From the sequence record PV245935.1: DNA of 64,000 nt; one strand, written 5' to 3'. The position numbers were made by a program, and so were the translations under genes. This DNA is from Escherichia phage kaset. Numbering within the stretch: the first letter of the stretch is position 1; each line of letters opens with the position of its first letter. The notes beneath the pieces are model-generated. The model was given only the letters and a program-made list of their open reading frames with translations, searched no databases and was not told the DNA's origin. This document shows positions 2,280 to 43,837 of the stretch, one piece after another.

Positions 2280-4655
2280 ATGAAAATTCTTGGCATAAAA
2301 CTCTGGGAGAAGACGCAACCAGAAGCCGAACCAGCGGAGATGCCGCCAGGCGACCCATTGGCACCGTTTGAACGCCTTGAAAGGCGCGGCAGCGGTCAAC
2401 GCTGGGACAAGACCGAAAGCAATCGACCGACCTTTAAAACGGTTGATGACTTCCCTTTATATGAGCCTGATATTAATGGCGACGGTGTTGCGATCATAAA
2501 AGGTCGCTCAGTCGATTCTGCAACAGTATCCAAAAAGGTCATGGACAATGCCTTAAAGAACATTAGTTCAGAAGGGCAGGTCAACCCATACACAGTACCT
2601 ATTCAACTTCAAAACTGGTATTTGTCACAGTCATTCATCGGCTATCAAGCTTGTGCCATTATCGCACAGCATTGGCTGGTGAACAAGGCGTGTTCCATGG
2701 TAGGACGCGATGCTGTCCGTAAAGGCTGGGAAGTTAAATCCAGTTCTGAGTCAGAATTGTCAGTACAGGCGAGCGAACGCCTAAAGCAAATTGATAAAGA
2801 ATTTAATATCAAAGAGCACTTAGTTGAAGCCGAACGATTCAAAAATATTTTTGGTATCCGCGTCATCATATTTGATGTGCGTAGCGATGACCCAGAATAC
2901 TACAGCAAGCCTTTTAACATTGATGGCGTGACAAAGGGGTCTTATAAGGGAATCATTCAGGTTGACCCTTATTGGATGATGCCATTTCTTACGTCTGAAA
3001 ACACCGCCGACCCTGCATCACAGCACTTCTATGATCCAGAATACTGGGTGATAAGCGGCCAGCGTTATCATCGCAGCCATCTAATCATCTTGCGCAATGA
3101 TGAACCAGCTGATATTCTCAAGCCGACTTATATCTATGGCGGCATTCCTTTGACTCAGCAGATTTATGAACGCATCTATGCCGCTGAACGTACCGCTAAC
3201 GAAGCCCCATTGCTGGCGATGTCCAAGCGTACGACCACGCTGCGGACCGACGTTGACAAAGCTATTGCCAATGAGCGTTCTTTCGCAGAGCGTTTGATGA
3301 TGTGGATTAAGTACCGCGACAACTATGCAGTCAAAGTGCTTGGTCAAAAAGAAGAGATGGACCAGTTCGACATAAACTTGTCAGACTTCGATAGCATCAT
3401 CATGAACCAGTACCAGCTGGTGGCCGCAATCGCAAAAGTTCCGTCAACCAAACTGCTTGGGACTTCGCCAAAAGGCTTTAACGCCACTGGTGAATTTGAG
3501 ATGGTCAGCTATCACGAAGAGTTGGAAACTTGCCAGCAGCATGACCTGACAAAAATTCTCGACCGCCATTACAAAATCCTTCTCAAATCAGAAGGGGTGG
3601 AAGTCGATGTTAAGGTTGCATGGGAACCAGTTGGCTCACTTACTGCCACTCAACTTGCGGAAATCAACGACAAGAGAGCTAACACTGGCAAAACTCTTAT
3701 TGATGCTGGCGTCATTTCTCCTGATGAAGAGCGCGACCGCATCAAAGACGACAAAAACAGCGGCTACAACCGCTTGCCGGAAGATGCAGCAGAAGAAACC
3801 CCAGGGATGTCTCCAGAGAATATGGCATTGCTTGGCAAGTCTGCTGGTGAAGTCCTGCAAGGTAAAGCCGATATTGAACAGGCGAAGGCTGATGTCGTTA
3901 AGATGGGCGGCCAGTTCTACAGCGAAACAGGTATTATGCCAGAAGGTGCCGCGCGTGGTGAGTTGGCGGAAAACCCTGACAGAGCGCCTGTCGAAATCAA
4001 CATGGACGATACCGATGATGAATCAAGCCATCAGGTTGATGTTCTAACGCAGCTGAAGGAAGGTCTGGAGGGTATTGCGGATTACTACCTGAAAGAAGGT
4101 CAGGATGTGGATTTTGACCCTCAAAAAGATTCACGGTCGGTGCAACCGTCTACCCTTCCAAGCGTCAAAGGTAATGTCGTTAACTTACGACACAACGTTG
4201 GAAAGATGGACGCAGCATCGTTACCTAAGATGAAGTTGCACGGGCTGATTCTTGGGATTGAGAATCCTCGCAACAGCATCCGTAGAGGGAACAGCCTTGA
4301 CGGTGAATGGGCAGTCAAGATGCCGCATCACTACGGATTCATCAAGGGCACTAAGGGCGCGGACGGCGATGAAGTCGACTGCTTTGTTGGTCCAAATATG
4401 AAGTCGCCGAAGGTCTTTATCGTTAACCAGAACGATAATTACTCTGGCGAGTTTGATGAACACAAGTGTATGCTTGGATTCGATTCAGCAGAAGAAGCGA
4501 AAGAAGCTTATCAAGCATCATTTGGTAACGGTTGGAATGGATTCGACTCAATCCACGAATTAGATGTGAACTCATTCAAGGAGTGGTTGAAGGGTGATTG
4601 CTCTCAAGCATACGGAGCACTCAATAATCCTACTAATTCACCGAAGCAAGGTTGA
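2280..4655 (+). CDS. portal protein with C-terminal extension
   Basis: 792 aa from ATG 2280 (RBS AGGTGG upstream; ORF track TTG 2247); position directly after terL, size and central region typical of portal proteins; C-terminal ~180 aa of unknown function. Confidence 0.6.
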   Translation: MKILGIKLWEKTQPEAEPAEMPPGDPLAPFERLERRGSGQRWDKTESNRPTFKTVDDFPLYEPDINGDGVAIIKGRSVDSATVSKKVMDNALKNISSEGQVNPYTVPIQLQNWYLSQSFIGYQACAIIAQHWLVNKACSMVGRDAVRKGWEVKSSSESELSVQASERLKQIDKEFNIKEHLVEAERFKNIFGIRVIIFDVRSDDPEYYSKPFNIDGVTKGSYKGIIQVDPYWMMPFLTSENTADPASQHFYDPEYWVISGQRYHRSHLIILRNDEPADILKPTYIYGGIPLTQQIYERIYAAERTANEAPLLAMSKRTTTLRTDVDKAIANERSFAERLMMWIKYRDNYAVKVLGQKEEMDQFDINLSDFDSIIMNQYQLVAAIAKVPSTKLLGTSPKGFNATGEFEMVSYHEELETCQQHDLTKILDRHYKILLKSEGVEVDVKVAWEPVGSLTATQLAEINDKRANTGKTLIDAGVISPDEERDRIKDDKNSGYNRLPEDAAEETPGMSPENMALLGKSAGEVLQGKADIEQAKADVVKMGGQFYSETGIMPEGAARGELAENPDRAPVEINMDDTDDESSHQVDVLTQLKEGLEGIADYYLKEGQDVDFDPQKDSRSVQPSTLPSVKGNVVNLRHNVGKMDAASLPKMKLHGLILGIENPRNSIRRGNSLDGEWAVKMPHHYGFIKGTKGADGDEVDCFVGPNMKSPKVFIVNQNDNYSGEFDEHKCMLGFDSAEEAKEAYQASFGNGWNGFDSIHELDVNSFKEWLKGDCSQAYGALNNPTNSPKQG

Positions 4656-4656
4656 T

Positions 4657-5508
4657 ATGGCTTTTAAAGCTTCGAAAAAACGTGAGCGCCGCTCACCCGA
4701 TAGAATCGGGCGCGGCAGTCCGATAATCCCATCAAACGCTATTGCGATGGCCTACCGTCGTGAGATGAAAGGTCTTTGCTATGCGATGATTGATGACTAT
4801 CAGGAAGGCATTTCAGAATGGCTTGACAAGAAGCAGGTGCAGAAGTTTTTTGCGCAAGACTCTGCTGATTCGACATTCCAGACCCTTATGAAACGGCTGC
4901 AGCTGAAATGGGCAAAGGCGTTTGCACGTGTTGGGTCGAAGATTGCTGCTGATTTTGTCAAATCGGTCGAAAAGGGTGCCACTTCTGCTACATTCGCCAG
5001 CCTTAAGTCCGCAGGCATAGAAGCGCCAAAGGCCACGTACAACAAATTCGTTGAGAACACTCTTAGAACAAGCGAGACATTTAACACGACTCTAGTGACC
5101 AAGGTCGGCGAGGATATTCACAACAGAGTGTACGAAGCAGTAATGCTTTCACTGACTTCGCCCGACCCAGCCAAACAAGGCACGTCAGGCATTCAGGCGG
5201 CGCTGCGAAACGTCAAACACTTTTCTGCAAAGAGAGTCGATTTAATCGCTAAAGATCAAACAAGTAAATTGTATTGCGTTCTAAGCGATGAAAGAATGCG
5301 CCAGAATGGAGTTGAAGAATTTGAGTGGGCGCACTCAGGAGCAGGAAAGGAGCCGCGAATCTCTCATGAACACGTCGACGGAATGAGATTCAAACTTGAT
5401 GACAAGCGTCTATGGGAAGTTGGCGGAGAATTGAAGTTCAAAAAGGGCGACATCGGTCCTCCTGGATGGGCGATACACTGCAAGTGCAGGAAAATACCAA
5501 TCATTTGA
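4657..5508 (+). CDS. minor head / head morphogenesis protein (Mu F / SPP1 gp7-like)
   Basis: 284 aa; starts 2 nt after portal stop; typical gene order portal then MuF-like protein. Confidence 0.5.
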   Translation: MAFKASKKRERRSPDRIGRGSPIIPSNAIAMAYRREMKGLCYAMIDDYQEGISEWLDKKQVQKFFAQDSADSTFQTLMKRLQLKWAKAFARVGSKIAADFVKSVEKGATSATFASLKSAGIEAPKATYNKFVENTLRTSETFNTTLVTKVGEDIHNRVYEAVMLSLTSPDPAKQGTSGIQAALRNVKHFSAKRVDLIAKDQTSKLYCVLSDERMRQNGVEEFEWAHSGAGKEPRISHEHVDGMRFKLDDKRLWEVGGELKFKKGDIGPPGWAIHCKCRKIPII

Positions 5509-6589: not shown

Positions 6590-6960
6590 CTGGCAGTGGA
6601 TTGCCGCAGGATTTTACGCGTATAATGACGTATCATCCGTATCAAGTAAGTAGTTGTTTTCAAAAGAATCTTACGGATGATACGGATGATACGCGTTGCC
6701 GCGATACTTTATAGGAATTCAAATAAATTAATTTAAAATTATATATCTAATTTAATTTTATTTTTTTATAAACTCTTATATATGAAAAGTATCCGTATCA
6801 TCCGTATCATCCGTAGCACACCAGTGATAGCGCGGCTTATACACCGATACGGATAAAAATACGCCTCATTTTATCCGTATCATCCGTATCACACTAATTA
6901 AGGCGCGGCTATATCGGTTGTTATACATATTCAAACCATAATTATTGTTTGCCTAAGTTT
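6590..6960. repeat. noncoding region with 9-bp ATCATCCGT/ACGGATGAT repeats in both orientations plus CGTATAATGACGTA box (copy A)
   Basis: tandem copies at 6631-6644, 6672-6695 (inverted), 6791-6816, 6872-6890; a ~45 bp core is nearly identical to 58758-58800. Confidence 0.7.
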
Positions 6961-8424: not shown

Positions 8425-9042
8425 ATGACTTTCCAAACTAGTGTAGGCCGTCAATATACAACTGGCTTTCCTGGCGACATCGTTCGCGACGGCCCACAGC
8501 GTGGGAAGCCAGGCCGAATTGCCAACGCTAACGAAGGCGCAAACGTAAACGCCATCAGCCGTGTGTTCGGTTTTAAGACTGACGTATCCTTAATGGGTAC
8601 TGGTCAAACCAAAACTTTGGGCGCGCAGGACTTTGAAGTTGAGCTGGGCGGCACTAACTACTACGGCATCCTCGGTAATAGCAAGCGTTACGCGCTGTAT
8701 GGCAACTCTACTGGTCCTTTAGGTGCCAGCATGGTTCTGCCTCAATATAGCGAAGGCGAGTTTTACGATATGTGCACGGGCCTTGTAGTTGAAGTATTCA
8801 ACCCAAGCACCAGCCCGCAGACGCTTAACTATGGCGACCTGCTCGCTTATGTACCTAAAGGCATTTCCGGCGCGAACAACCCGAACAACTTGCCTATTGG
8901 CGCAATTATCGCCTATACTGGCTCACTGCCAACTGGCATGGTTGCCATCCCAGGCGGTATTGTGATTGACCCGACTGCTATTGCCCTTTCCGGTCCAAGC
9001 GTCCAGTCTTCCACTTATACCATTGTACAATTGACTCGTTAA
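8425..9042 (+). CDS. hypothetical head protein (possible decoration protein)
   Basis: 205 aa between scaffold and major capsid genes; Gly-rich. Confidence 0.4.
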   Translation: MTFQTSVGRQYTTGFPGDIVRDGPQRGKPGRIANANEGANVNAISRVFGFKTDVSLMGTGQTKTLGAQDFEVELGGTNYYGILGNSKRYALYGNSTGPLGASMVLPQYSEGEFYDMCTGLVVEVFNPSTSPQTLNYGDLLAYVPKGISGANNPNNLPIGAIIAYTGSLPTGMVAIPGGIVIDPTAIALSGPSVQSSTYTIVQLTR

Positions 9043-26118: not shown

Positions 26119-27906
26119 ATGCCAACACTTATTAACAGACCTTTCGCGCAAAGCGGTGATGTATCCGTGGTGCCGGATGCAAGCCCAAGCGGTTATGTGA
26201 ACTTCCAGCGCGGCTACACTCCTGACTATGCGCTTGCGCTGGAGGCCGGAAACGTCGCCGCGAAAGCTGTTGAGCGCGAATCGATGAACTGGTTGCTGAA
26301 TTTGATTACAGACAACCTTATGTTTATTCAAGATCATGGCGCTCAACAATATTTCTCTTCTGACTTGAAGCCGGATGGATACCCGAAAAACGCCATTGTT
26401 GTCAGCAACTCTGGAACGCCTTCAGCACCTGAGTGGCGCATCTTTCAAAGTGTGGTTGACGGCAACACAAGCGCAGTACCAGCTAACGGAGAAACGGAAT
26501 CTTGGCAGGAATTAACACTGCCCAGCGAAGCGCGAAAATACATTCCTATGCCTGCTGGCGGCGATGCGCAAAACCCGTATTTTGTTCGCGGATTGATTTC
26601 AAGCGTTGTCGACTTTGACAATATTACGACTTCCACAACTATTGTCATCCAATCCGATGCCGTTGCCGCTCTGTGCTCTAATATTCCGAATGCTGTTGGC
26701 GCGACGAAGGTTGCAGGTCGCCTTCAGGTTTGCGCTTGGCAGGTCGATGCGCAAACGTTTGCGCTGCAACAATACACGTCAATGAACGGATATGTTTTTA
26801 CCCGCTCTTATACGTCTGGTGCTTGGAGTGCTTGGATTCAAAATGCCACCGTTCAAGATGTGCAAATTGGAACGCCGAATCTTGCATCAGGTAAAGGCGC
26901 GCAAGATATAATCCTCACCGTTCCAGCAGGGTATTCATGGCCTCCGTCAGCAGGTAGTCGTTTGACAATCGTCAATGATGTAACGACTACCGGACCTGTC
27001 ACCGTGACCATTGGTGTAAACAAAGTTGCCGTTCTTGGATTCGACGGCGGCGAGCTGCCAGCTGGCGCTATCGTAGGCTTGTTGCCATTCACCATAATTT
27101 ATGACGGCACTGTTTGGCGTCTCCTTCAGGCGTTTGGCGCGGCGCAAATCGGCGTTGATGCTACTGAGCCGCAACAGTTTGTTACAAAGCGCCAACTCGA
27201 TGCTTTGGCTGCGAAATTGATCACTATGGGCGACGTATTCGAAGTCGGTGAGACTCGATTCCTCACCAACGGAACAGACCCGAATACTAAACTGGGCGCT
27301 TACGGCCAGGTATGGACACGACTTCCTGATAACATGGTCATCAGAACATCTGGCACGGCGCGAAACGGTCTTGCCACTGGCGGCGCGGACTCTGTTACTC
27401 TCACCGCTGCAATGCTTCCTCTCCACAATCACAGCGTGAACATTACCACGCGACAAAGTGGTCCATGGTCTAATACCACTGGAGATGCTGGAAATCACAA
27501 CCACACAGGTGATACAAGTCAAAACGGTGCTCACGTGCATGGAATGGATACGGCAGGCAACCATCACCATGACAGCAGCTGGGGTGAAGCCAATACTAGC
27601 GATGCGCGGTACGGCGTTTATGATGGGACACACAACAACTTCGGAAGTCGCAAAGGCGGCGACTGGGATAACTACAAATACAACACTTCGACTAACGGCA
27701 ACCACGTCCATAATATTCAATCTTCTGGATCACACACCCATGGATTGAATATAAATTACGCTGGCAATCACAGCCACAGTTATACCCTTCCCGCTCACAC
27801 TCACGATGTGGTCGGTAACACTGGCAACGCAGGGCAGTCGGTGCCAACGGCTGTTGCGACTTTGCCGCGATACGTTGTCTTGAATGGCTGGTACAGAAGC
27901 GCATAA
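26119..27906 (+). CDS. tail fiber protein with collar-like domain and His-rich repeats
   Basis: 595 aa from ATG 26119; C-terminal region has repeated HxH motifs (NHNHTGD, AHVHG, NHHHD, NHVHN, SHTHG, NHSHS, AHTHD). Confidence 0.6.
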   Translation: MPTLINRPFAQSGDVSVVPDASPSGYVNFQRGYTPDYALALEAGNVAAKAVERESMNWLLNLITDNLMFIQDHGAQQYFSSDLKPDGYPKNAIVVSNSGTPSAPEWRIFQSVVDGNTSAVPANGETESWQELTLPSEARKYIPMPAGGDAQNPYFVRGLISSVVDFDNITTSTTIVIQSDAVAALCSNIPNAVGATKVAGRLQVCAWQVDAQTFALQQYTSMNGYVFTRSYTSGAWSAWIQNATVQDVQIGTPNLASGKGAQDIILTVPAGYSWPPSAGSRLTIVNDVTTTGPVTVTIGVNKVAVLGFDGGELPAGAIVGLLPFTIIYDGTVWRLLQAFGAAQIGVDATEPQQFVTKRQLDALAAKLITMGDVFEVGETRFLTNGTDPNTKLGAYGQVWTRLPDNMVIRTSGTARNGLATGGADSVTLTAAMLPLHNHSVNITTRQSGPWSNTTGDAGNHNHTGDTSQNGAHVHGMDTAGNHHHDSSWGEANTSDARYGVYDGTHNNFGSRKGGDWDNYKYNTSTNGNHVHNIQSSGSHTHGLNINYAGNHSHSYTLPAHTHDVVGNTGNAGQSVPTAVATLPRYVVLNGWYRSA

Positions 27907-27914
27907 GGTGATTT

Positions 27915-28559
27915 ATGATTAATGCAAACGTAATATCTAAAGGGACCGGATGCAGCATGGATGTTGCAGAGAAATGGGTGGACCCTTTCAAGCAGGCTTG
28001 TGAGCACTACGGAATCAAAAGCAAGAATGCCATCGCGGCATTCCTTGCAAACGTAGGAGTAGAGACGGGCAGCTTGAAAACCTTTGTGGAAAATCTCAAC
28101 TACTCTGCTCAAGGTCTTGCCAATACATGGCCTAGTCGTTACAGCGTCAACGGTCGTTTCGGCGGCGCACCCAACTCCTTGGCATTGTCGATTGCCCGTA
28201 AACCAATGGAAATCGCCAATAATACATACGCAAACCGCATGGGCAACGGTTCAGTATCATCTGGCGACGGTTGGAAGTACCGTGGCCGTGGTGCCATTCA
28301 GCTAACCGGAAAGGCTAACTATGCTGAATATACGCGTCAATCAGGCTATGATGCATTGAACAATCCTGATATTCTGACTGAACCAAAATACATTGCTGAC
28401 AGCGCGGCGTGGTTCTTCAAGAACAGCGGTTGCATTCCACTTGCTGATGCAGGCGCATTTGATTCGACTGTGAAGAGGATTAACGGGGCCGCGCCGAATA
28501 CGGCTAACCATGGGGATTTGCGACGGAAGCGTTACAAGGATGCACTAGCAGTTATGTAA
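27915..28559 (+). CDS. endolysin, glycoside hydrolase family 19-like
   Basis: 214 aa; motifs FLANVGVETG and YRGRGAIQLTGKANY match GH19 catalytic signatures; AAGGTGA RBS. Confidence 0.8.
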   Translation: MINANVISKGTGCSMDVAEKWVDPFKQACEHYGIKSKNAIAAFLANVGVETGSLKTFVENLNYSAQGLANTWPSRYSVNGRFGGAPNSLALSIARKPMEIANNTYANRMGNGSVSSGDGWKYRGRGAIQLTGKANYAEYTRQSGYDALNNPDILTEPKYIADSAAWFFKNSGCIPLADAGAFDSTVKRINGAAPNTANHGDLRRKRYKDALAVM

Positions 28560-28560
28560 G

Positions 28561-28591
28561 AAAAAGGCCCATATGGGCCTTTGTTTATTTT
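28561..28591. terminator. bidirectional Rho-independent terminator
   Basis: AAAAAGGCCCatatGGGCCTTTGTTTATTTT; hairpin flanked by A-run and T-run; between convergent genes. Confidence 0.6.
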
Positions 28592-28815
28592 ACGGCTTCA
28601 ACTTGGACGGGCGGAGCGGAACTTGTATCAATGTCTGGCAAGTCGAAGTAATACCCCGCCATACCAATCACACCTACAATCGCGGCCCGTGCCACCTTGT
28701 TGCTAATTGACTCCCCAATAAGCTTTACCAACAGGGATAAGATTTGAGACGTCAAAGCCTTTTTCAGCCTTTTGTTTTCTTCCAAATCTTTCTGCATAAC
28801 TACCACCCATGTCAA
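28585..28815 (-). CDS. small membrane protein
   Basis: 76 aa; hydrophobic segment VARAAIVGVIGMAGYYF. Confidence 0.45.
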   Translation of the reverse strand: MTWVVVMQKDLEENKRLKKALTSQILSLLVKLIGESISNKVARAAIVGVIGMAGYYFDLPDIDTSSAPPVQVEAVK

Positions 28816-29354
28816 CGCACTTCCTGTGTCTTAACATTACCTGAAGCATCTCTCAAGGGCAGTGGATAGTAGGCCATTTGGTAGTCTGATACGCCTTCAA
28901 TGTGATAAAACACGATTACGTCTTTGCTGTTGATGAGCATGTTAACGACATCTGATTTATCTTCTGGAGTGAGTATTAGTGCGCCGCCTGTCCTGCTGTC
29001 TACTGCAACAGGGTATGTCTTGTCGACAAGGCCGCTGTCCAATGTATTATACCTGACAACGATTTCAGGGGCATCAACTTTTGCCATCGACATTCCGAAC
29101 ACAAACGACACGACCTGCCGACCGCGATCATTCATTACGCACATCTTTTCTTTGTCAAATCTTTCTTTTATTACGTCGTATTTATTCCAGCAAAACTCAA
29201 ATGACTGCCCATTGTTGAAATATCTTGTCAAAACTTTTGCACTTCCATTCGGCGGCGTAAACATATTTTCAGCCGATGCAGTCTTGGTGAAGAATATAAC
29301 TGTCAGCATAGCCATGATGATGATCAAAACAATCTTTAATTTGTTCGCTTTCAT
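28812..29354 (-). CDS. secreted / periplasmic protein
   Basis: 180 aa; N-terminal signal peptide MKANKLKIVLIIIMAMLTVIFFTKTASA. Confidence 0.5.
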   Translation of the reverse strand: MKANKLKIVLIIIMAMLTVIFFTKTASAENMFTPPNGSAKVLTRYFNNGQSFEFCWNKYDVIKERFDKEKMCVMNDRGRQVVSFVFGMSMAKVDAPEIVVRYNTLDSGLVDKTYPVAVDSRTGGALILTPEDKSDVVNMLINSKDVIVFYHIEGVSDYQMAYYPLPLRDASGNVKTQEVR

Positions 29355-29370
29355 TATAATTCACCTTTTG

Positions 29371-29398
29371 ATTATGAATATTAATAGTATAGGCTCAA
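29371..29398 (-). promoter_or_regulatory. sigma70-like promoter for the 29354-28585 two-gene unit
   Basis: on minus strand TTGAGC-N16-CATAAT followed by AAAAGGTGA RBS. Confidence 0.35.
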
Positions 29399-29419
29399 GG
29401 TTTTGAAAGTAAATACGCC

Positions 29420-29458
29420 GAAAGTAAATAAAAGAAAAGCCGGAAATTTCCGGCTTTA
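29420..29458 (-). terminator. Rho-independent terminator downstream of ligase gene
   Basis: perfect hairpin AGCCGGAAA/TTTCCGGCT followed on minus strand by TTTCTTTTATTT. Confidence 0.5.
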
Positions 29459-29529: not shown

Positions 29530-30504
29530 TTAAAAATACTCCATATCGGTAATATCACGGAAGCATTTATACAAGGCAGAGCGCGGCACGTCAACGATGC
29601 CAAAGTTGAAGAATTTATATGTCAGATACTTGTTGCGATAATTCTCGCGATTCTCCCAAAGCATTTTTCTCTCTGCCATAGGCATTGAACCAGCGGAGAC
29701 GCGGAAAGGAATCATTTCACCTTTCTCATCAACATATTTTGGATTGACAACCACAAATGATCCAAGGTATCCTTTTGCAACTAAGCCTTCAGCCTCTTTC
29801 GAACGCTTAGTGCGACCCAACTCATCAATGAATGCTTCGTTGTTGTTCTCCATCATCTCAACGAAGTCTATGATCAGTCCTTCTTCATCGGTCCACGGCT
29901 TGTCCTTCCACACATCACGTGACTTTGGCGTCGCGCGACCATGCTTGTATTTGCCCGTCCAAGACTTGCCATACAAGCCTTCATAGCCAAGTTGGTCTGC
30001 TTCGATTTGCATTGCCGCGTACTGTTCCATATTTTCGATGTTGCGATATTCGAGAGCGCGAAGGAATGGACGTCGGCCATGGTCAATGAGATATTGATTG
30101 ACCTCAGCAACGCGTCGATTATACTGCTCATAACGTGCCGAGAAAGGCAAATCAGGTTCGCTAAAGTCATCAAACACCCACCATGTGAAGTTTGTTATAG
30201 CATCGGTATTCATGCAGGCGGTATAGGCTTGCTGCATTACGTTCTTATCATTCGGATTGCCGTCAATAAGCTCTCCATCAAGGCCGTGAATCAATTCACC
30301 CAAAAAGAGGAACTCTTTTTTAATCTGGACGTTTCGAAGCGCCATGCCGGACGTACCCATTGGCAAGTTGTCATACGCCATCGCGCGTATGCCATCGACC
30401 TTGAAGGACAACCCGCAAGGCAGCGGCACATCTTCGCCACGCTCGATAATTTGTTTACGCTGGCAACCTTTCATTGGTTTTAATGCTTTGATTTCCCCTG
30501 CCAT
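29530..30504 (-). CDS. ATP-dependent DNA ligase
   Basis: 324 aa; adenylation motif KVDGIR (KxDGxR). Confidence 0.8.
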   Translation of the reverse strand: MAGEIKALKPMKGCQRKQIIERGEDVPLPCGLSFKVDGIRAMAYDNLPMGTSGMALRNVQIKKEFLFLGELIHGLDGELIDGNPNDKNVMQQAYTACMNTDAITNFTWWVFDDFSEPDLPFSARYEQYNRRVAEVNQYLIDHGRRPFLRALEYRNIENMEQYAAMQIEADQLGYEGLYGKSWTGKYKHGRATPKSRDVWKDKPWTDEEGLIIDFVEMMENNNEAFIDELGRTKRSKEAEGLVAKGYLGSFVVVNPKYVDEKGEMIPFRVSAGSMPMAERKMLWENRENYRNKYLTYKFFNFGIVDVPRSALYKCFRDITDMEYF

Positions 30505-31097
30505 TACTCGCGACCCTCATTCATTACTTGTTCCATTGCGTAGGCATAAGCCTGATCAGTCGATTTGATAAACGTGCCGTTGTACATCACCCCTTTACGG
30601 TCCTTGATGTCTTCATAGGCGGCTTGAGCGCAATCAGACAGTCGAAGTCCATAATCATGCGCTACGCCGGAAAGATAATCGACTGCGGCCATGATAGTGA
30701 CATCAATATCCATGCTTTGATTTTTAGCAATGGCGTCACCAAGCCGTCCGAGAGTCTTCGCCAAGCGAAGGATAAAGGAATGAGGGTGAGCGCCTTTGTC
30801 AGCGCAACCGCCGCCGATGATGTCTTCGATTTTTGCACCATTTTGCGCGGCAAGAATAGTTAACACAACAAGGCAATCACCGATGTCGTCCTTGATTGCG
30901 GCTTGCAAATCACAAATGGCCTGCTCTGTATATCCGATTTCAGGGTCAAAGAACACAAGGTCATGGAGTTGATCCACGTGGTCGGTCAACTCCCCAAACT
31001 CGCTAATAAGCTTCGGGTATTGGTCTTTAAGGTCGCAACCTTTGATGATGTTACGGTCAGAAGCCCATTGGCGAATGTTTGCATAAATCTGGTTCAT
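30504..31097 (-). CDS. MazG-like nucleotide pyrophosphohydrolase (putative)
   Basis: 197 aa; all-alpha pattern KLISEFGEL ... IGDCLVVLTILAAQNG resembling MazG/NTP-PPase motifs. Confidence 0.4.
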   Translation of the reverse strand: MNQIYANIRQWASDRNIIKGCDLKDQYPKLISEFGELTDHVDQLHDLVFFDPEIGYTEQAICDLQAAIKDDIGDCLVVLTILAAQNGAKIEDIIGGGCADKGAHPHSFILRLAKTLGRLGDAIAKNQSMDIDVTIMAAVDYLSGVAHDYGLRLSDCAQAAYEDIKDRKGVMYNGTFIKSTDQAYAYAMEQVMNEGRE

Positions 31098-31612
31098 TTA
31101 TTTTCCTTTGATGCGTTGAATTGGTCGATTTTAATTTTAGCCTGATTATAAGTATCAATCAAGCTATTAACTTTCTCTTTTAATCGGTTCGTTTCTGCGG
31201 CGAACTGAACAAGAAATCGGACATCCTCTTCTGATAGTCCACAGTTTCCTTCTGGGATAGAGAGGCGTCCAGTGGTCGCAGAGTAGGGCACACTCCTGAG
31301 TAATTCACGGGAACAGCTGAGTTGCTCGCGCAGCTTGATATTCCCAGACTTGTAACGAGCAATAGTGTCATCAGCAACCAGTTGCGCTTCCTGGCGACCC
31401 TTCTCATATGCCGATGCCGATTCAACCTGTAAAGATGCAATTTGCTCTTCGAGTGCATTTATCTTGTCCTTACGCTCATTAAGCGATGTCAGATATTGAT
31501 TGTCCTTGGCCAGTGATGCGTTGGTTTGCTGAAGGTCTTCAACGTATGATCCAGCGGCGAACGCGCCAACAAGGGCCAGAATCTTCAGTAGCGGTACAAT
31601 TCTTTCTATCAT
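31094..31612 (-). CDS. Rz: i-spanin (Rz-like)
   Basis: 172 aa; N-terminal TM segment, coiled coils, C-terminal LREQLSCSRELLR region resembling lambda Rz; contains embedded lipoprotein ORF in another frame. Confidence 0.55.
   Translation of the reverse strand: MIERIVPLLKILALVGAFAAGSYVEDLQQTNASLAKDNQYLTSLNERKDKINALEEQIASLQVESASAYEKGRQEAQLVADDTIARYKSGNIKLREQLSCSRELLRSVPYSATTGRLSIPEGNCGLSEEDVRFLVQFAAETNRLKEKVNSLIDTYNQAKIKIDQFNASKENK
31180..31407 (-). CDS. Rz1: o-spanin (Rz1-like lipoprotein) embedded within Rz
   Basis: internal start of ORF 31180-31458; signal MRRVARKRNWLLMTLLLVTSLGISSC with lipobox ISSC; Pro-containing mature part. Confidence 0.5.
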   Translation of the reverse strand: MRRVARKRNWLLMTLLLVTSLGISSCASNSAVPVNYSGVCPTLRPLDASLSQKETVDYQKRMSDFLFSSPQKRTD

Positions 31613-31669
31613 GATGCACCAGATAAATAAAAGGCCGCCAATCGGCAGCCTTGTTGATTTGATTGTCGA

Positions 31670-38913: not shown

Positions 38914-38940
38914 ACAAAAAGGCCGCCCATTAGGACGGCC
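38914..38940 (-). terminator. hairpin plus U-tract (attenuator/terminator) upstream of exonuclease gene
   Basis: on minus strand GGCCGUCC-UAAU-GGGCGGCC then UUUUUG, then AGGAGG RBS. Confidence 0.35.
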
Positions 38941-43810: not shown

Positions 43811-43837
43811 AAAAAAGACCCACAACAAGTGTGGGTC
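43811..43837 (-). terminator. Rho-independent terminator after KAE-rich protein gene
   Basis: minus strand GACCCACAcuugUUGUGGGUC then UUUUUUC. Confidence 0.55.

Follow-up and report, generated by a model that had tools for sequence, protein, structure and literature searches.

A conserved pair of genes for a secreted and a small, possibly membrane-active protein beside the endolysin gene of Wifcevirus phages, with a possible link to lysis

What do two short genes do that lie between the DNA ligase gene and the endolysin gene of an Escherichia coli phage, at the point where the two transcription arms of the genome converge? The question arises from positions 28,561 to 29,458 of a stretch of 64,000 nucleotides (nt) of Escherichia phage kaset (PV245935.1; from here: the window). 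A first-pass annotation had described these genes, one for a secreted and one for a membrane protein, as a moron-like cassette with its own promoter and terminators, or alternatively as a missing holin/antiholin pair. Here we report that the pair is an old and syntenic feature of several phage genera, that the small protein belongs to a family with one experimentally studied member, and we tentatively connect the pair with lysis. Between positions 27900 and 30600 the window shares 90–96% identity with 27 Wifcevirus records, among them ECO71P1, WFH, ECML-117, Mansfield and BASEL Bas98-101, which are myoviruses of E. coli or Shigella with 67–72 kb. The window thus belongs to a Wifcevirus that infects E. 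coli; its identity to ECO71P1, WFH and Mansfield is about 95%.

Both open reading frames (ORFs) that had been placed on the minus strand are present. They are annotated in every annotated related record examined, each time as "hypothetical", and encode proteins of 180 and 70 amino acids (aa):

28812–29354, minus strand: gene for the 180-aa secreted protein; ribosome-binding site AAGGTGA at 29361–29367
29271–29354, minus strand: signal peptide of the 180-aa protein
28815–29270, minus strand: mature 152-aa part of the same protein
28585–28797, minus strand: gene for the 70-aa protein (phrog_5165); ribosome-binding site GGGTGG at 28803–28808; hydrophobic part at nt 28645–28686

The small gene had earlier been read as encoding 76 aa from a start that overlaps the end of the gene ahead. 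This reading did not hold. In all annotated records examined the gene starts at ATG 28797 (MQKD..., 70 aa), the GGGTGG element sits 5 nt upstream of this codon, and the additional N-terminal TWVVV that a start at TTG 28815 would provide has a counterpart in no orthologue. ATG 28797 is therefore the most likely start, and TTG 28815, which overlaps the TGA, is an unlikely one. With this start the two genes are 14 nt apart and do not overlap; of the translational coupling claimed before, the overlap is gone, whereas coupling by proximity across the 14 nt may occur.

The 70-aa protein matches phrog_5165 with an E-value of 2.3e-8, and so do its relatives in the phages PB1 (gp49, 1.4e-54), Kyle (8.6e-8) and MTx (2.9e-12). 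By tblastn, relatives were found in 332 phage records, 289 of which are Pseudomonas phages of the genus Pbunavirus, and all their database names are "hypothetical". Two relatives have been treated in the literature. One is ORF13 of Pantoea phage PA1, named "lysis-related protein" (PA1-LRP; Tian et al. 2024, Front Microbiol, PMC11538084), which is 54% identical to the 70-aa protein over 50 aa (E-value 2e-13) and whose locus was located on the PA1 sequence (L031:4550–4771). The other is gp48 (ORF47) of the distantly related Pseudomonas phage 14-1 (Putzeys et al. 2024, microLife, PMC10914365). The 70-aa protein, 14-1 gp48, PB1 gp49 and PA1-LRP are, by these comparisons, one conserved family.

PA1-LRP shares with the 70-aa protein the basic N-terminus, an L-I-G-E-T motif and a glycine-rich hydrophobic stretch, and its gene likewise stands between a gene for a secreted protein, here of 186 aa, and a convergent GH19 (glycoside hydrolase family 19) endolysin gene. 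It differs in genus and host, and its function was derived from over-expression and endolysin fusion only. When PA1-LRP was over-expressed in E. coli, the optical density (OD) fell by 13–20%, beta-galactosidase was released and 24.7% of the cells were dead; a fusion of the endolysin (Lys) with LRP led to an OD 69% below that with Lys alone, and the hydrophobic part of LRP fused to Lys sufficed for 40.6% cell death, while fusions of Lys to the neighbouring LPP or LVP did not inhibit growth (PMC11538084). The PA1 endolysin orthologue is reported to have neither a transmembrane domain (TMD) nor a signal peptide, and no holin was found in PA1 by its authors (PMC11538084). These experiments weakly indicate, for the orthologue, that PA1-LRP perturbs the membrane and assists the endolysin. 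The secreted protein encoded upstream was passed over in that study.

The gene of 14-1 gp48 was recognized by ONT-cappable-seq as a monocistronic unit (TU021) with its own start and stop; its GC content is below that of its neighbours, and the authors described it as possibly "moron-like" (PMC10914365). Its position, convergent beside the endolysin gene, was checked here. Like the 70-aa gene, 14-1 gp48 and PB1 gp49 belong to phrog_5165 (for which PB1 gp49 was scanned), lie next to the endolysin gene and share a bidirectional terminator with it; unlike it, 14-1 gp48 is monocistronic, has no secreted-protein gene ahead and possesses a longer C-terminal tail. Upstream of PB1 gp49 there is a terminator followed by a promoter-like site.

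The arrangement around the pair is shared widely. On the plus strand of the window the tail fibre genes are followed by the GH19 endolysin gene (27915–28559). Converging with it, the minus strand carries a helicase gene, two unknown genes, the Rz/Rz1 spanin genes, MazG, DNA ligase (29530–30504), the 180-aa gene and the small gene, with 25 nt between the stop of the latter and that of the endolysin gene. The common local order, consisting of ligase, optional small genes, a signal-bearing protein of 169–253 aa, phrog_5165 and the convergent endolysin and tail fibre, was found in five lineages: Wifcevirus, Kylevirus (Kyle, PA1), Myosmarvirus (MTx, TropicalSun), Carpasinavirus (FoX6) and an uncultured 69-kb contig (L028). 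The small gene is located beside a convergent endolysin gene in every relative examined, in six lineages (Kyle, PB1, 14-1, MTx, TropicalSun, FoX6, L027, L028), and for the secreted protein, homologues were recognized by position, structure and profile in four to five of these six. Pbunavirus (PB1, 14-1) and the contig L027 possess the small gene without the secreted-protein gene; a terminator and a promoter-like site stand ahead of it. Each of the 28 Wifcevirus records contains both genes, and homologues of either protein occurred on phage contigs of 61–73 kb only and in no bacterial genome. Since the pair is kept at one place across genera, it is to be regarded as an old conserved feature of the PB1-like phage supergroup and not as an acquired moron. 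The same synteny argues against the published "moron-like" suggestion for 14-1 gp48 and corrects it.

Some variation was noticed at this junction. The slot between the ligase and the small gene holds a multi-TMD protein in FoX6 and L028, and in L028 also a 55-aa lipoprotein. At the endolysin position, L028 carries an ORF of 156 aa (4205–4675) with a VanY/M15-like motif recognizable by eye, not GH19, while the small gene and the tail fibre genes are unmoved; this is an apparent endolysin swap in situ. The annotated start of FoX6 gp36c (L016, 4495–4677) is probably too far downstream, as an in-frame GTG 21 codons upstream adds a basic N-terminus typical of the family (MARKKKPVKLP...).

The GC content across 28550–29450 is 33–47%, compared to ~47–52% in the flanks. 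Among seven Wifceviruses, the variable codons of the 180-aa gene comprise 39 with synonymous changes only and 18 with amino acid changes; for the 70-aa gene the numbers are 11 and 1. In the pairs Kyle/PA1 and MTx/TropicalSun the identities of both genes resemble those of ligase and endolysin. By these measures, ordinary purifying selection acts on both genes, which change at rates similar to those of their neighbours. Within the pair, one block is poor in synonymous change:

28705–29085, minus strand: low-synonymous block of ~380 nt in seven Wifceviruses, running through the 3' half of the 180-aa gene and on to codon 30 of the 70-aa gene

In this block 1–3 of 30 codons vary synonymously, versus 5–19 in the flanking genes. 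An RNA element or an overlapping gene was considered as the cause and not adopted. Recent recombinational spread within Wifcevirus appears as the simplest explanation, because no Rfam family matched, the fold z-scores (−0.9 and −2.45) are weak and a comparable depletion is absent from the Kyle/PA1 and MTx/TropicalSun pairs.

What kind of protein is the product of the first gene? The 180-aa protein had been predicted to carry a signal peptide, and this prediction stands. Its N-terminus consists of MKANKLK, the 15-residue h-region IVLIIIMAMLTVIFF and TKTASA|EN, with cleavage after Ala28; it is a canonical Sec signal that contains neither cysteine nor a lipobox, and AxA-type cleavage sites are kept in the homologues, e.g. 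AAAA|EN, ADA|SN and VAVA|QD. The assignment of the product as a Sec-exported periplasmic protein is well supported by these features. Cys55 and Cys72 are invariant in the Wifcevirus/Kylevirus alignment and recur in Myosmarvirus, but not in FoX6 or L028, and the mature protein is probably disulphide-bonded. The protein has very few relatives: a word-indexed search detected five, and HMMER, run over the full set of 1.84 billion representatives, detected six. One of the six, the repeat protein P0011 of 1250 aa, was rejected as spurious because its score accumulates over the repeats.

A first AlphaFold2 run with the full-length protein and a four-sequence alignment (predicted local distance difference test, pLDDT, 43) was discarded. 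After removal of the signal peptide and addition of three divergent homologues, seven aligned sequences yielded a beta-rich model of the mature part with a pLDDT of 89 and a predicted template modelling score (pTM) of 0.83. Among predicted viral structures, the best match comes from Serratia phage MTx, with an uncharacterised protein of 169 aa (E-value 2.4e-7, TM 0.64), and the third is a 253-aa protein of Xanthomonas phage Carpasina; genes of these same lengths occupy the syntenic slot, with 169 aa in MTx and 253 aa in Carpasinavirus FoX6 (gp37c). Aligned by hhalign, the Wifcevirus/Kylevirus proteins matched those of MTx, TropicalSun, FoX6 and L028 with a probability of 70% and an E-value of 4e-5 over 149 columns. 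Homology of the secreted proteins across these genera is likely because profile comparison, fold and position agree.

A Foldseek search of the model against the Protein Data Bank (PDB) gave nothing significant, and the TEAD hits in it, being non-significant, were disregarded. The fold of the 152-aa mature part is probably IalB/MotY-N-like, judging from the model: the proteins compared are the Bartonella invasion-associated locus B protein (IalB, PDB 3dtd) and chain A of PDB 8z5n, a component of the Vibrio polar flagellar motor which we take to be MotY, both with 3–7% identity to the 180-aa protein. The Pfam model of IalB (PF06776) did not match it. The resemblance to IalB indicates a location and not a mechanism.

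The 70-aa protein is composed of a basic N-terminus, the conserved motif L-I-G-E-S-x-x-x-K-x-x-R, a hydrophobic stretch rich in Gly, Ala and Ser (residues 38–51) and an acidic, proline-rich tail. In an alignment of six genera, L15, L23, G28, E29, R37, G42 and P63 are invariant (core L..L....GE.......R....G). The single hydrophobic helix predicted before is there as a stretch but is short: its uncharged run comprises the 14 residues AAIVGVIGMAGYYF between R37 and D52, and the best mean over 19 residues on the Kyte-Doolittle scale is 1.34, compared to 2.39 for the signal peptide of the neighbouring protein. It is a marginal transmembrane segment. Nine orthologues were compared for charge: ahead of and including the conserved Arg, every one of them is net positive (+2 to +9), and the tail is net negative in eight, the C-terminal part of L028 having a net charge of 0. 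Because of this charge asymmetry in 8/9 orthologues, a cytoplasmic N-terminus and an external C-terminus (N-in/C-out) would fit, provided that the segment spans the membrane at all. Searches of Pfam, NCBIfam, PADLOC and the sequences of the PDB found nothing that resembles the 70-aa protein. With a profile built from six orthologues, no helix-turn-helix or other match was detected in Pfam and PDB, the best and non-significant one being the PsbX membrane helix (E-value 0.5); a helix-turn-helix regulator found no backing in these profile searches. With regard to holin families, Pfam and NCBIfam gave no similarity and phrog_6384 was the sole one, at an E-value of 0.16.

Is the pair a transcription unit of its own? 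The following signals frame it:

29436–29457, minus strand: Rho-independent terminator behind the DNA ligase gene; stem of 9 bp, loop of GAAA type, T-run; free energy −13.6 kcal/mol, z −3.26
29386–29413, minus strand: P1, the likeliest promoter, sigma-70-like TTTACT-N16-TATACT; 9/12 matches; invariant in 7/7 Wifceviruses
29371–29398, minus strand: promoter TTGAGC-N16-CATAAT as proposed in the first-pass annotation; 9/12 matches
28563–28582, either strand: bidirectional terminator common to the endolysin gene and the small gene; 8 bp; free energies −13.2/−15.3, z −2.6/−2.9

The two bracketing terminators proposed earlier were confirmed. Both hairpins fold better than shuffled controls, rank among the best terminator-like sites of a region that is enriched in such sites (14 observed versus 5.3 ± 2.8 expected), and were also called terminators, independently, by the annotators of the Mansfield and WFH records. 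The stem of the hairpin at 29436–29457 is kept in the seven Wifceviruses while its loop varies; the hairpin at 28563–28582 takes up the entire 25-nt gap between both stop codons, and a shared terminator at this junction is annotated in PB1, 14-1 and Mansfield and predicted in Kyle. Further terminators in the leftward arm lie at 31631–31652, 38921–38940 and 43817–43837. The whole leftward arm is thus cut into terminator-bounded units, and the bracketing is not special to the pair. The strong terminators at 31631–31652 and 38921–38940 (minus strand) stand no more than ~20 nt from where the i-spanin and polC-like genes start. As these gaps are too small for a promoter, the two genes must, judging by the spacing, be reached by read-through, with the terminators acting as attenuators.

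The promoter proposed earlier fared less well. Matches of 9/12 quality occur at chance frequency (10 observed versus 7.7 ± 2.4 expected), both hexamers vary among the seven Wifceviruses (TTAAGC, TTCGGC; CGTAAT), and the −10 element CATAAT ends 4 nt upstream of the Shine-Dalgarno sequence AAGGTGA, so that the transcript would begin inside the latter. TTGAGC-N16-CATAAT is probably not the functional promoter. P1 most likely is: its predicted transcription start near 29379 leaves a leader of ~25 nt including the ribosome-binding site, and its hexamers recur at about eight other intergenic promoter-like sites of the phage, at operon starts. With two terminators and a conserved promoter-like site, the pair is probably its own transcription unit; the autonomy claimed before is retained with regard to the terminators, but the predicted promoter has moved to P1.

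P1 belongs to a family of intergenic sites before operon starts with a −10 element TATACT and a −35 element TTGCTK, TTGCCT or TTTACT 16–17 nt upstream, located at 29391(−), 42713(−), 43762(−), 46418(−), 46500(+), 53302(+), 54563(+), 61244(+) and 61642(+); the −35 element TTTACT was found at two other TATACT sites of the window as well. The structural operons are preceded instead by TTGCTT-N17-TATAAT or TTGCCT-N17-TATAAT. A deduction of expression timing from promoter class was rejected, because the structural operons carry sigma-70-like sites, too. A repeat overlaps the −35 element of P1:

29405–29430, minus strand: two copies of the 11-bp direct repeat TATTTACTTTC, starts 15 nt apart

These are the only two exact copies of TATTTACTTTC in the window, a count not above chance for its whole length, and a genome-wide motif was rejected on this ground.

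How does the pair relate to lysis? Two lysis genes stand near it:

27915–28559, plus strand: GH19 endolysin; Glyco_hydro_19, E-value 1.4e-7; phrog_181, E-value 2.6e-69
31094–31612, minus strand: Rz-like inner-membrane spanin (i-spanin) with embedded outer-membrane spanin (o-spanin) at 31180–31458; phrog_1327, E-value 1e-26; i-/o-spanin in the Mansfield record

The spanin gene is located three genes upstream of the pair on the same strand. In the endolysin no signal peptide, signal-anchor-release (SAR) domain or hydrophobic segment was found. Without an export signal the endolysin needs a membrane-permeabilising partner, and the annotation of Mansfield names no holin. The 70-aa protein is one of several holin candidates, the least hydrophobic of them and the only one with experimental support. 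The holin/antiholin alternative of the first-pass annotation thereby receives weak backing for the small gene, by way of PA1-LRP, but none for the 180-aa gene.

Further membrane proteins were noticed in these phages. A 113-aa protein encoded near the terminase/tail fibre cluster of Mansfield (MK903282.1, L006, 7814–8155) carries a signal or TMD at its N-terminus and a TMD at its C-terminus; together with a 71-aa protein considered below, it is a candidate for an unannotated holin/antiholin. A 201-aa phrog_1544 protein (PB1, L004 2564–3169; PA1, L031 1621–2226; Kyle; MTx), whose match to GTA_holin_3TM stays below threshold, stands where Wifcevirus has Rz/Rz1. At the spanin position of FoX6, gp42c (L016, 803–1402) has the look of an i-spanin-like coiled coil to which two additional TMDs are joined at the N-terminus, and a separate lipoprotein follows it. 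PB1 gp52 was rejected as GTA_holin_3TM, being below threshold (E-value 0.018, 16 bits versus a cut-off of 24.8).

We tentatively favour the reading that the pair is a lysis-associated module in which a membrane-active small protein of the PA1-LRP type is co-expressed with a periplasmic partner of IalB-like fold from a separate unit at the arm junction. The proposal starts from what is directly seen at the locus: two genes with their orthology and synteny, a signal peptide and the terminators. At the hairpin 29436–29457 transcription of the ligase operon would end, and we infer that host RNA polymerase re-initiates at TTTACT-N16-TATACT; that the small gene can be transcribed independently is known from a relative. 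The new transcript would stop at the bidirectional hairpin that also serves the endolysin gene. The 180-aa product would be exported by Sec and cleaved after Ala28 to give a beta-rich periplasmic protein of 152 aa, presumably with its disulphide bond. The 70-aa protein, translated 14 nt downstream, would keep its basic amphipathic N-part in the cytoplasm and insert its short Gly/Ala-rich helix into the inner membrane, and the acidic proline-rich tail would face the periplasm; this topology is itself a prediction. Following its orthology with PA1-LRP, the relative in which membrane permeabilisation and endolysin assistance were observed, it might perturb the cytoplasmic membrane, whereby the signal-less endolysin could reach the cell wall. 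The periplasmic protein might bind or restrain the 70-aa protein from the periplasmic side, an interaction conceivable because of co-transcription, tight spacing and co-conservation. In its most far-reaching form, which we consider unlikely, this would be a new lysis-control system in which a very short N-in protein of the LRP type (phrog_5165) triggers endolysin release and, in the enterobacterial and Xanthomonas lineages, the co-translated IalB-fold protein acts on its short periplasmic tail as antiholin or timer.

Several points weigh against a lysis-associated module. A 71-aa protein with two strong hydrophobic segments (TMDs) is encoded in all 28 Wifcevirus records just outside the window; its gene lies at 67160–67372 in the collinear RCIP0363 and at 8797–9012 in Mansfield. 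PB1 encodes the 3-TMD protein gp10, and gp08 as well, in the equivalent neighbourhood, and the phrog_1544 membrane protein is, in PB1, Kyle and MTx, a further holin candidate. The hydrophobic segment of the 70-aa protein is short and marginal, and its gene was left "hypothetical" in the Mansfield and MTx records. Adjacency to the endolysin gene may merely mirror the genome-wide synteny of the group, P1-like sites precede operons of several kinds, and the 180-aa protein is tied to the small protein by position alone. Small hydrophobic peptides are often toxic under over-expression of the kind used for PA1-LRP. The PA1 assays comprised 24-h T7 over-expression and translational fusions, without co-expression in trans, timing or complementation; a two-hybrid test showed no contact between Lys and LRP, and TMHMM called a "hydrophobic region" and not a TMD in PA1-LRP (PMC11538084).

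The main rival and a serious one, ahead of a soluble regulator, a sole holin/antiholin and a moron, is superinfection exclusion or protection of the envelope in the manner of T4 Imm and Sp. Both proteins would be made early in infection from a host-type promoter and would block DNA entry or the tail's wall hydrolase of phages that arrive later, or would prevent lysis from without. A periplasmic protein together with a small, probably inner-membrane protein, expressed from a sigma-70-like site of their own between terminators, would suit such a task; in 14-1 the small gene is transcribed by itself (PMC10914365), the slot between ligase and small gene gathers various envelope proteins in FoX6 and L028, and the tail lytic transglycosylase of these phages is a possible target. 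We consider exclusion possible but rather unlikely: no similarity in sequence or fold to Imm, Sp or a known exclusion protein was found in Pfam, PHROGs, PDB and BFVD, the mostly synonymous changes speak of conservative evolution with no sign of an arms race, and what experiments exist for the family speak for damage to the membrane and help for the endolysin (PMC11538084). These latter data also bear on the idea that the 70-aa protein is a soluble, two-helix cytoplasmic factor, e.g. a regulator with a basic arm, functionally unrelated to the secreted protein. A hydrophobic run of 14–18 residues flanked by Arg and Asp, a motif L-I-G-E-S/T-V-K-D-R with a basic N-terminus (+2 to +9) that would suit a helical hairpin binding nucleic acid or protein, and the occurrence of the small gene alone in Pbunavirus are in line with it. 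This idea is nevertheless improbable, since the orthologue profile found neither a helix-turn-helix nor another match beyond the non-significant PsbX, and since over-expressed PA1-LRP made cells release beta-galactosidase and needed no more than its hydrophobic part for activity (PMC11538084).

Another possibility is that the pair is the primary holin/antiholin, with the 70-aa protein as sole hole-former, a single-helix protein with a cytoplasmic N-terminus, and the periplasmic protein as its antiholin, comparable to T4 RI acting on the holin T. The position beside an endolysin that lacks an export signal, the absence of an annotated holin and the permeabilisation of cells and potentiation of the endolysin by PA1-LRP (PMC11538084) accord with this, and the order of putative inhibitor first and toxic membrane protein second would fit as well. 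We hold it to be quite improbable even so, because better-fitting small multi-TMD proteins are conserved elsewhere, the toxicity of LRP is mild and not abruptly lethal (PMC11538084), Pbunavirus and L027 lack the proposed antiholin although they carry the small gene, the small protein's transmembrane segment is marginal and phrog_6384 is a non-convincing sole holin-family similarity. Hardly probable at all is a true moron, that is a recently acquired, dispensable cassette of benefit to the host or for wider host interaction; we use the term as it was reportedly defined by Juhala et al. in 2000. Like phage morons, the pair has its own terminators, a promoter-like site and a deviant base composition with GC below the flanks, and the 180-aa gene is missing from Pbunavirus and L027; the remark of the 14-1 authors belongs here, too (PMC10914365). 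Unlike morons, the pair is no insertion relative to close, collinear relatives and is kept in place across the strictly virulent genera Wifcevirus, Kylevirus, Myosmarvirus and Carpasinavirus and an uncultured relative, with both genes in 28/28 Wifcevirus records and homologues confined to phage contigs. The claim of an acquired accessory cassette, as made in the first-pass annotation, fails on these grounds, and synteny largely refutes it.

Apart from the pair, a ~420-nt non-coding gap upstream of the head-protease gene was found to hold, at 6629–6891, 9-bp iterons, ATCCGTATC, in tandem doublets or triplets at 6629–6644, 6791–6818 and 6873–6891 and in inverted copies at 6672–6693 and 6846–6858, flanking a very AT-rich stretch of ~95 nt. 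By its appearance, this array could be an origin of replication or a site to which a regulator binds.

What would follow for phage biology? Of practical use is the recognition that the Wifcevirus 70-aa gene, 14-1 gp48, PB1 gp49 and PA1-LRP are one family beside the endolysin gene at the convergent junction of the transcription arms, and that an overlooked periplasmic protein of the same fold pairs with the small gene in several genera. Few Pseudomonas phages are used in therapy as much as the PB1-like ones, and to our knowledge no convincing holin has been assigned in this group; unusually fast lysis has been reported for Wifceviruses. If the lysis-control reading is true, it would explain the missing convincing holin in the PB1-like supergroup, the therapeutic Pbunaviruses included; if the genes are irrelevant to lysis, they are an ordinary conserved pair. 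The pair is a concrete two-gene knock-out target in tractable E. coli phages such as BASEL Bas98-101.

Two systems of phage T4 offer themselves for comparison. Imm of the inner membrane and Sp of the periplasm are superinfection-exclusion proteins whose genes are not adjacent. The pair described here resembles them as a small, probably inner-membrane protein and a periplasmic protein in a virulent myovirus, and differs in its adjacent genes and in sharing neither homology nor fold with them. In T4 lysis, the membrane effector T (N-in, C-out) is controlled by the antiholins RI in the periplasm and RIII in the cytoplasm. No similarity in sequence or fold connects the two systems; T has a large periplasmic domain, whereas the tail of the 70-aa protein comprises ~20 residues, and RI possesses a SAR domain where the 180-aa protein has a cleavable signal peptide. 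The analogy lies in the proposed arrangement, an N-in/C-out membrane effector that would be controlled by a secreted periplasmic protein.

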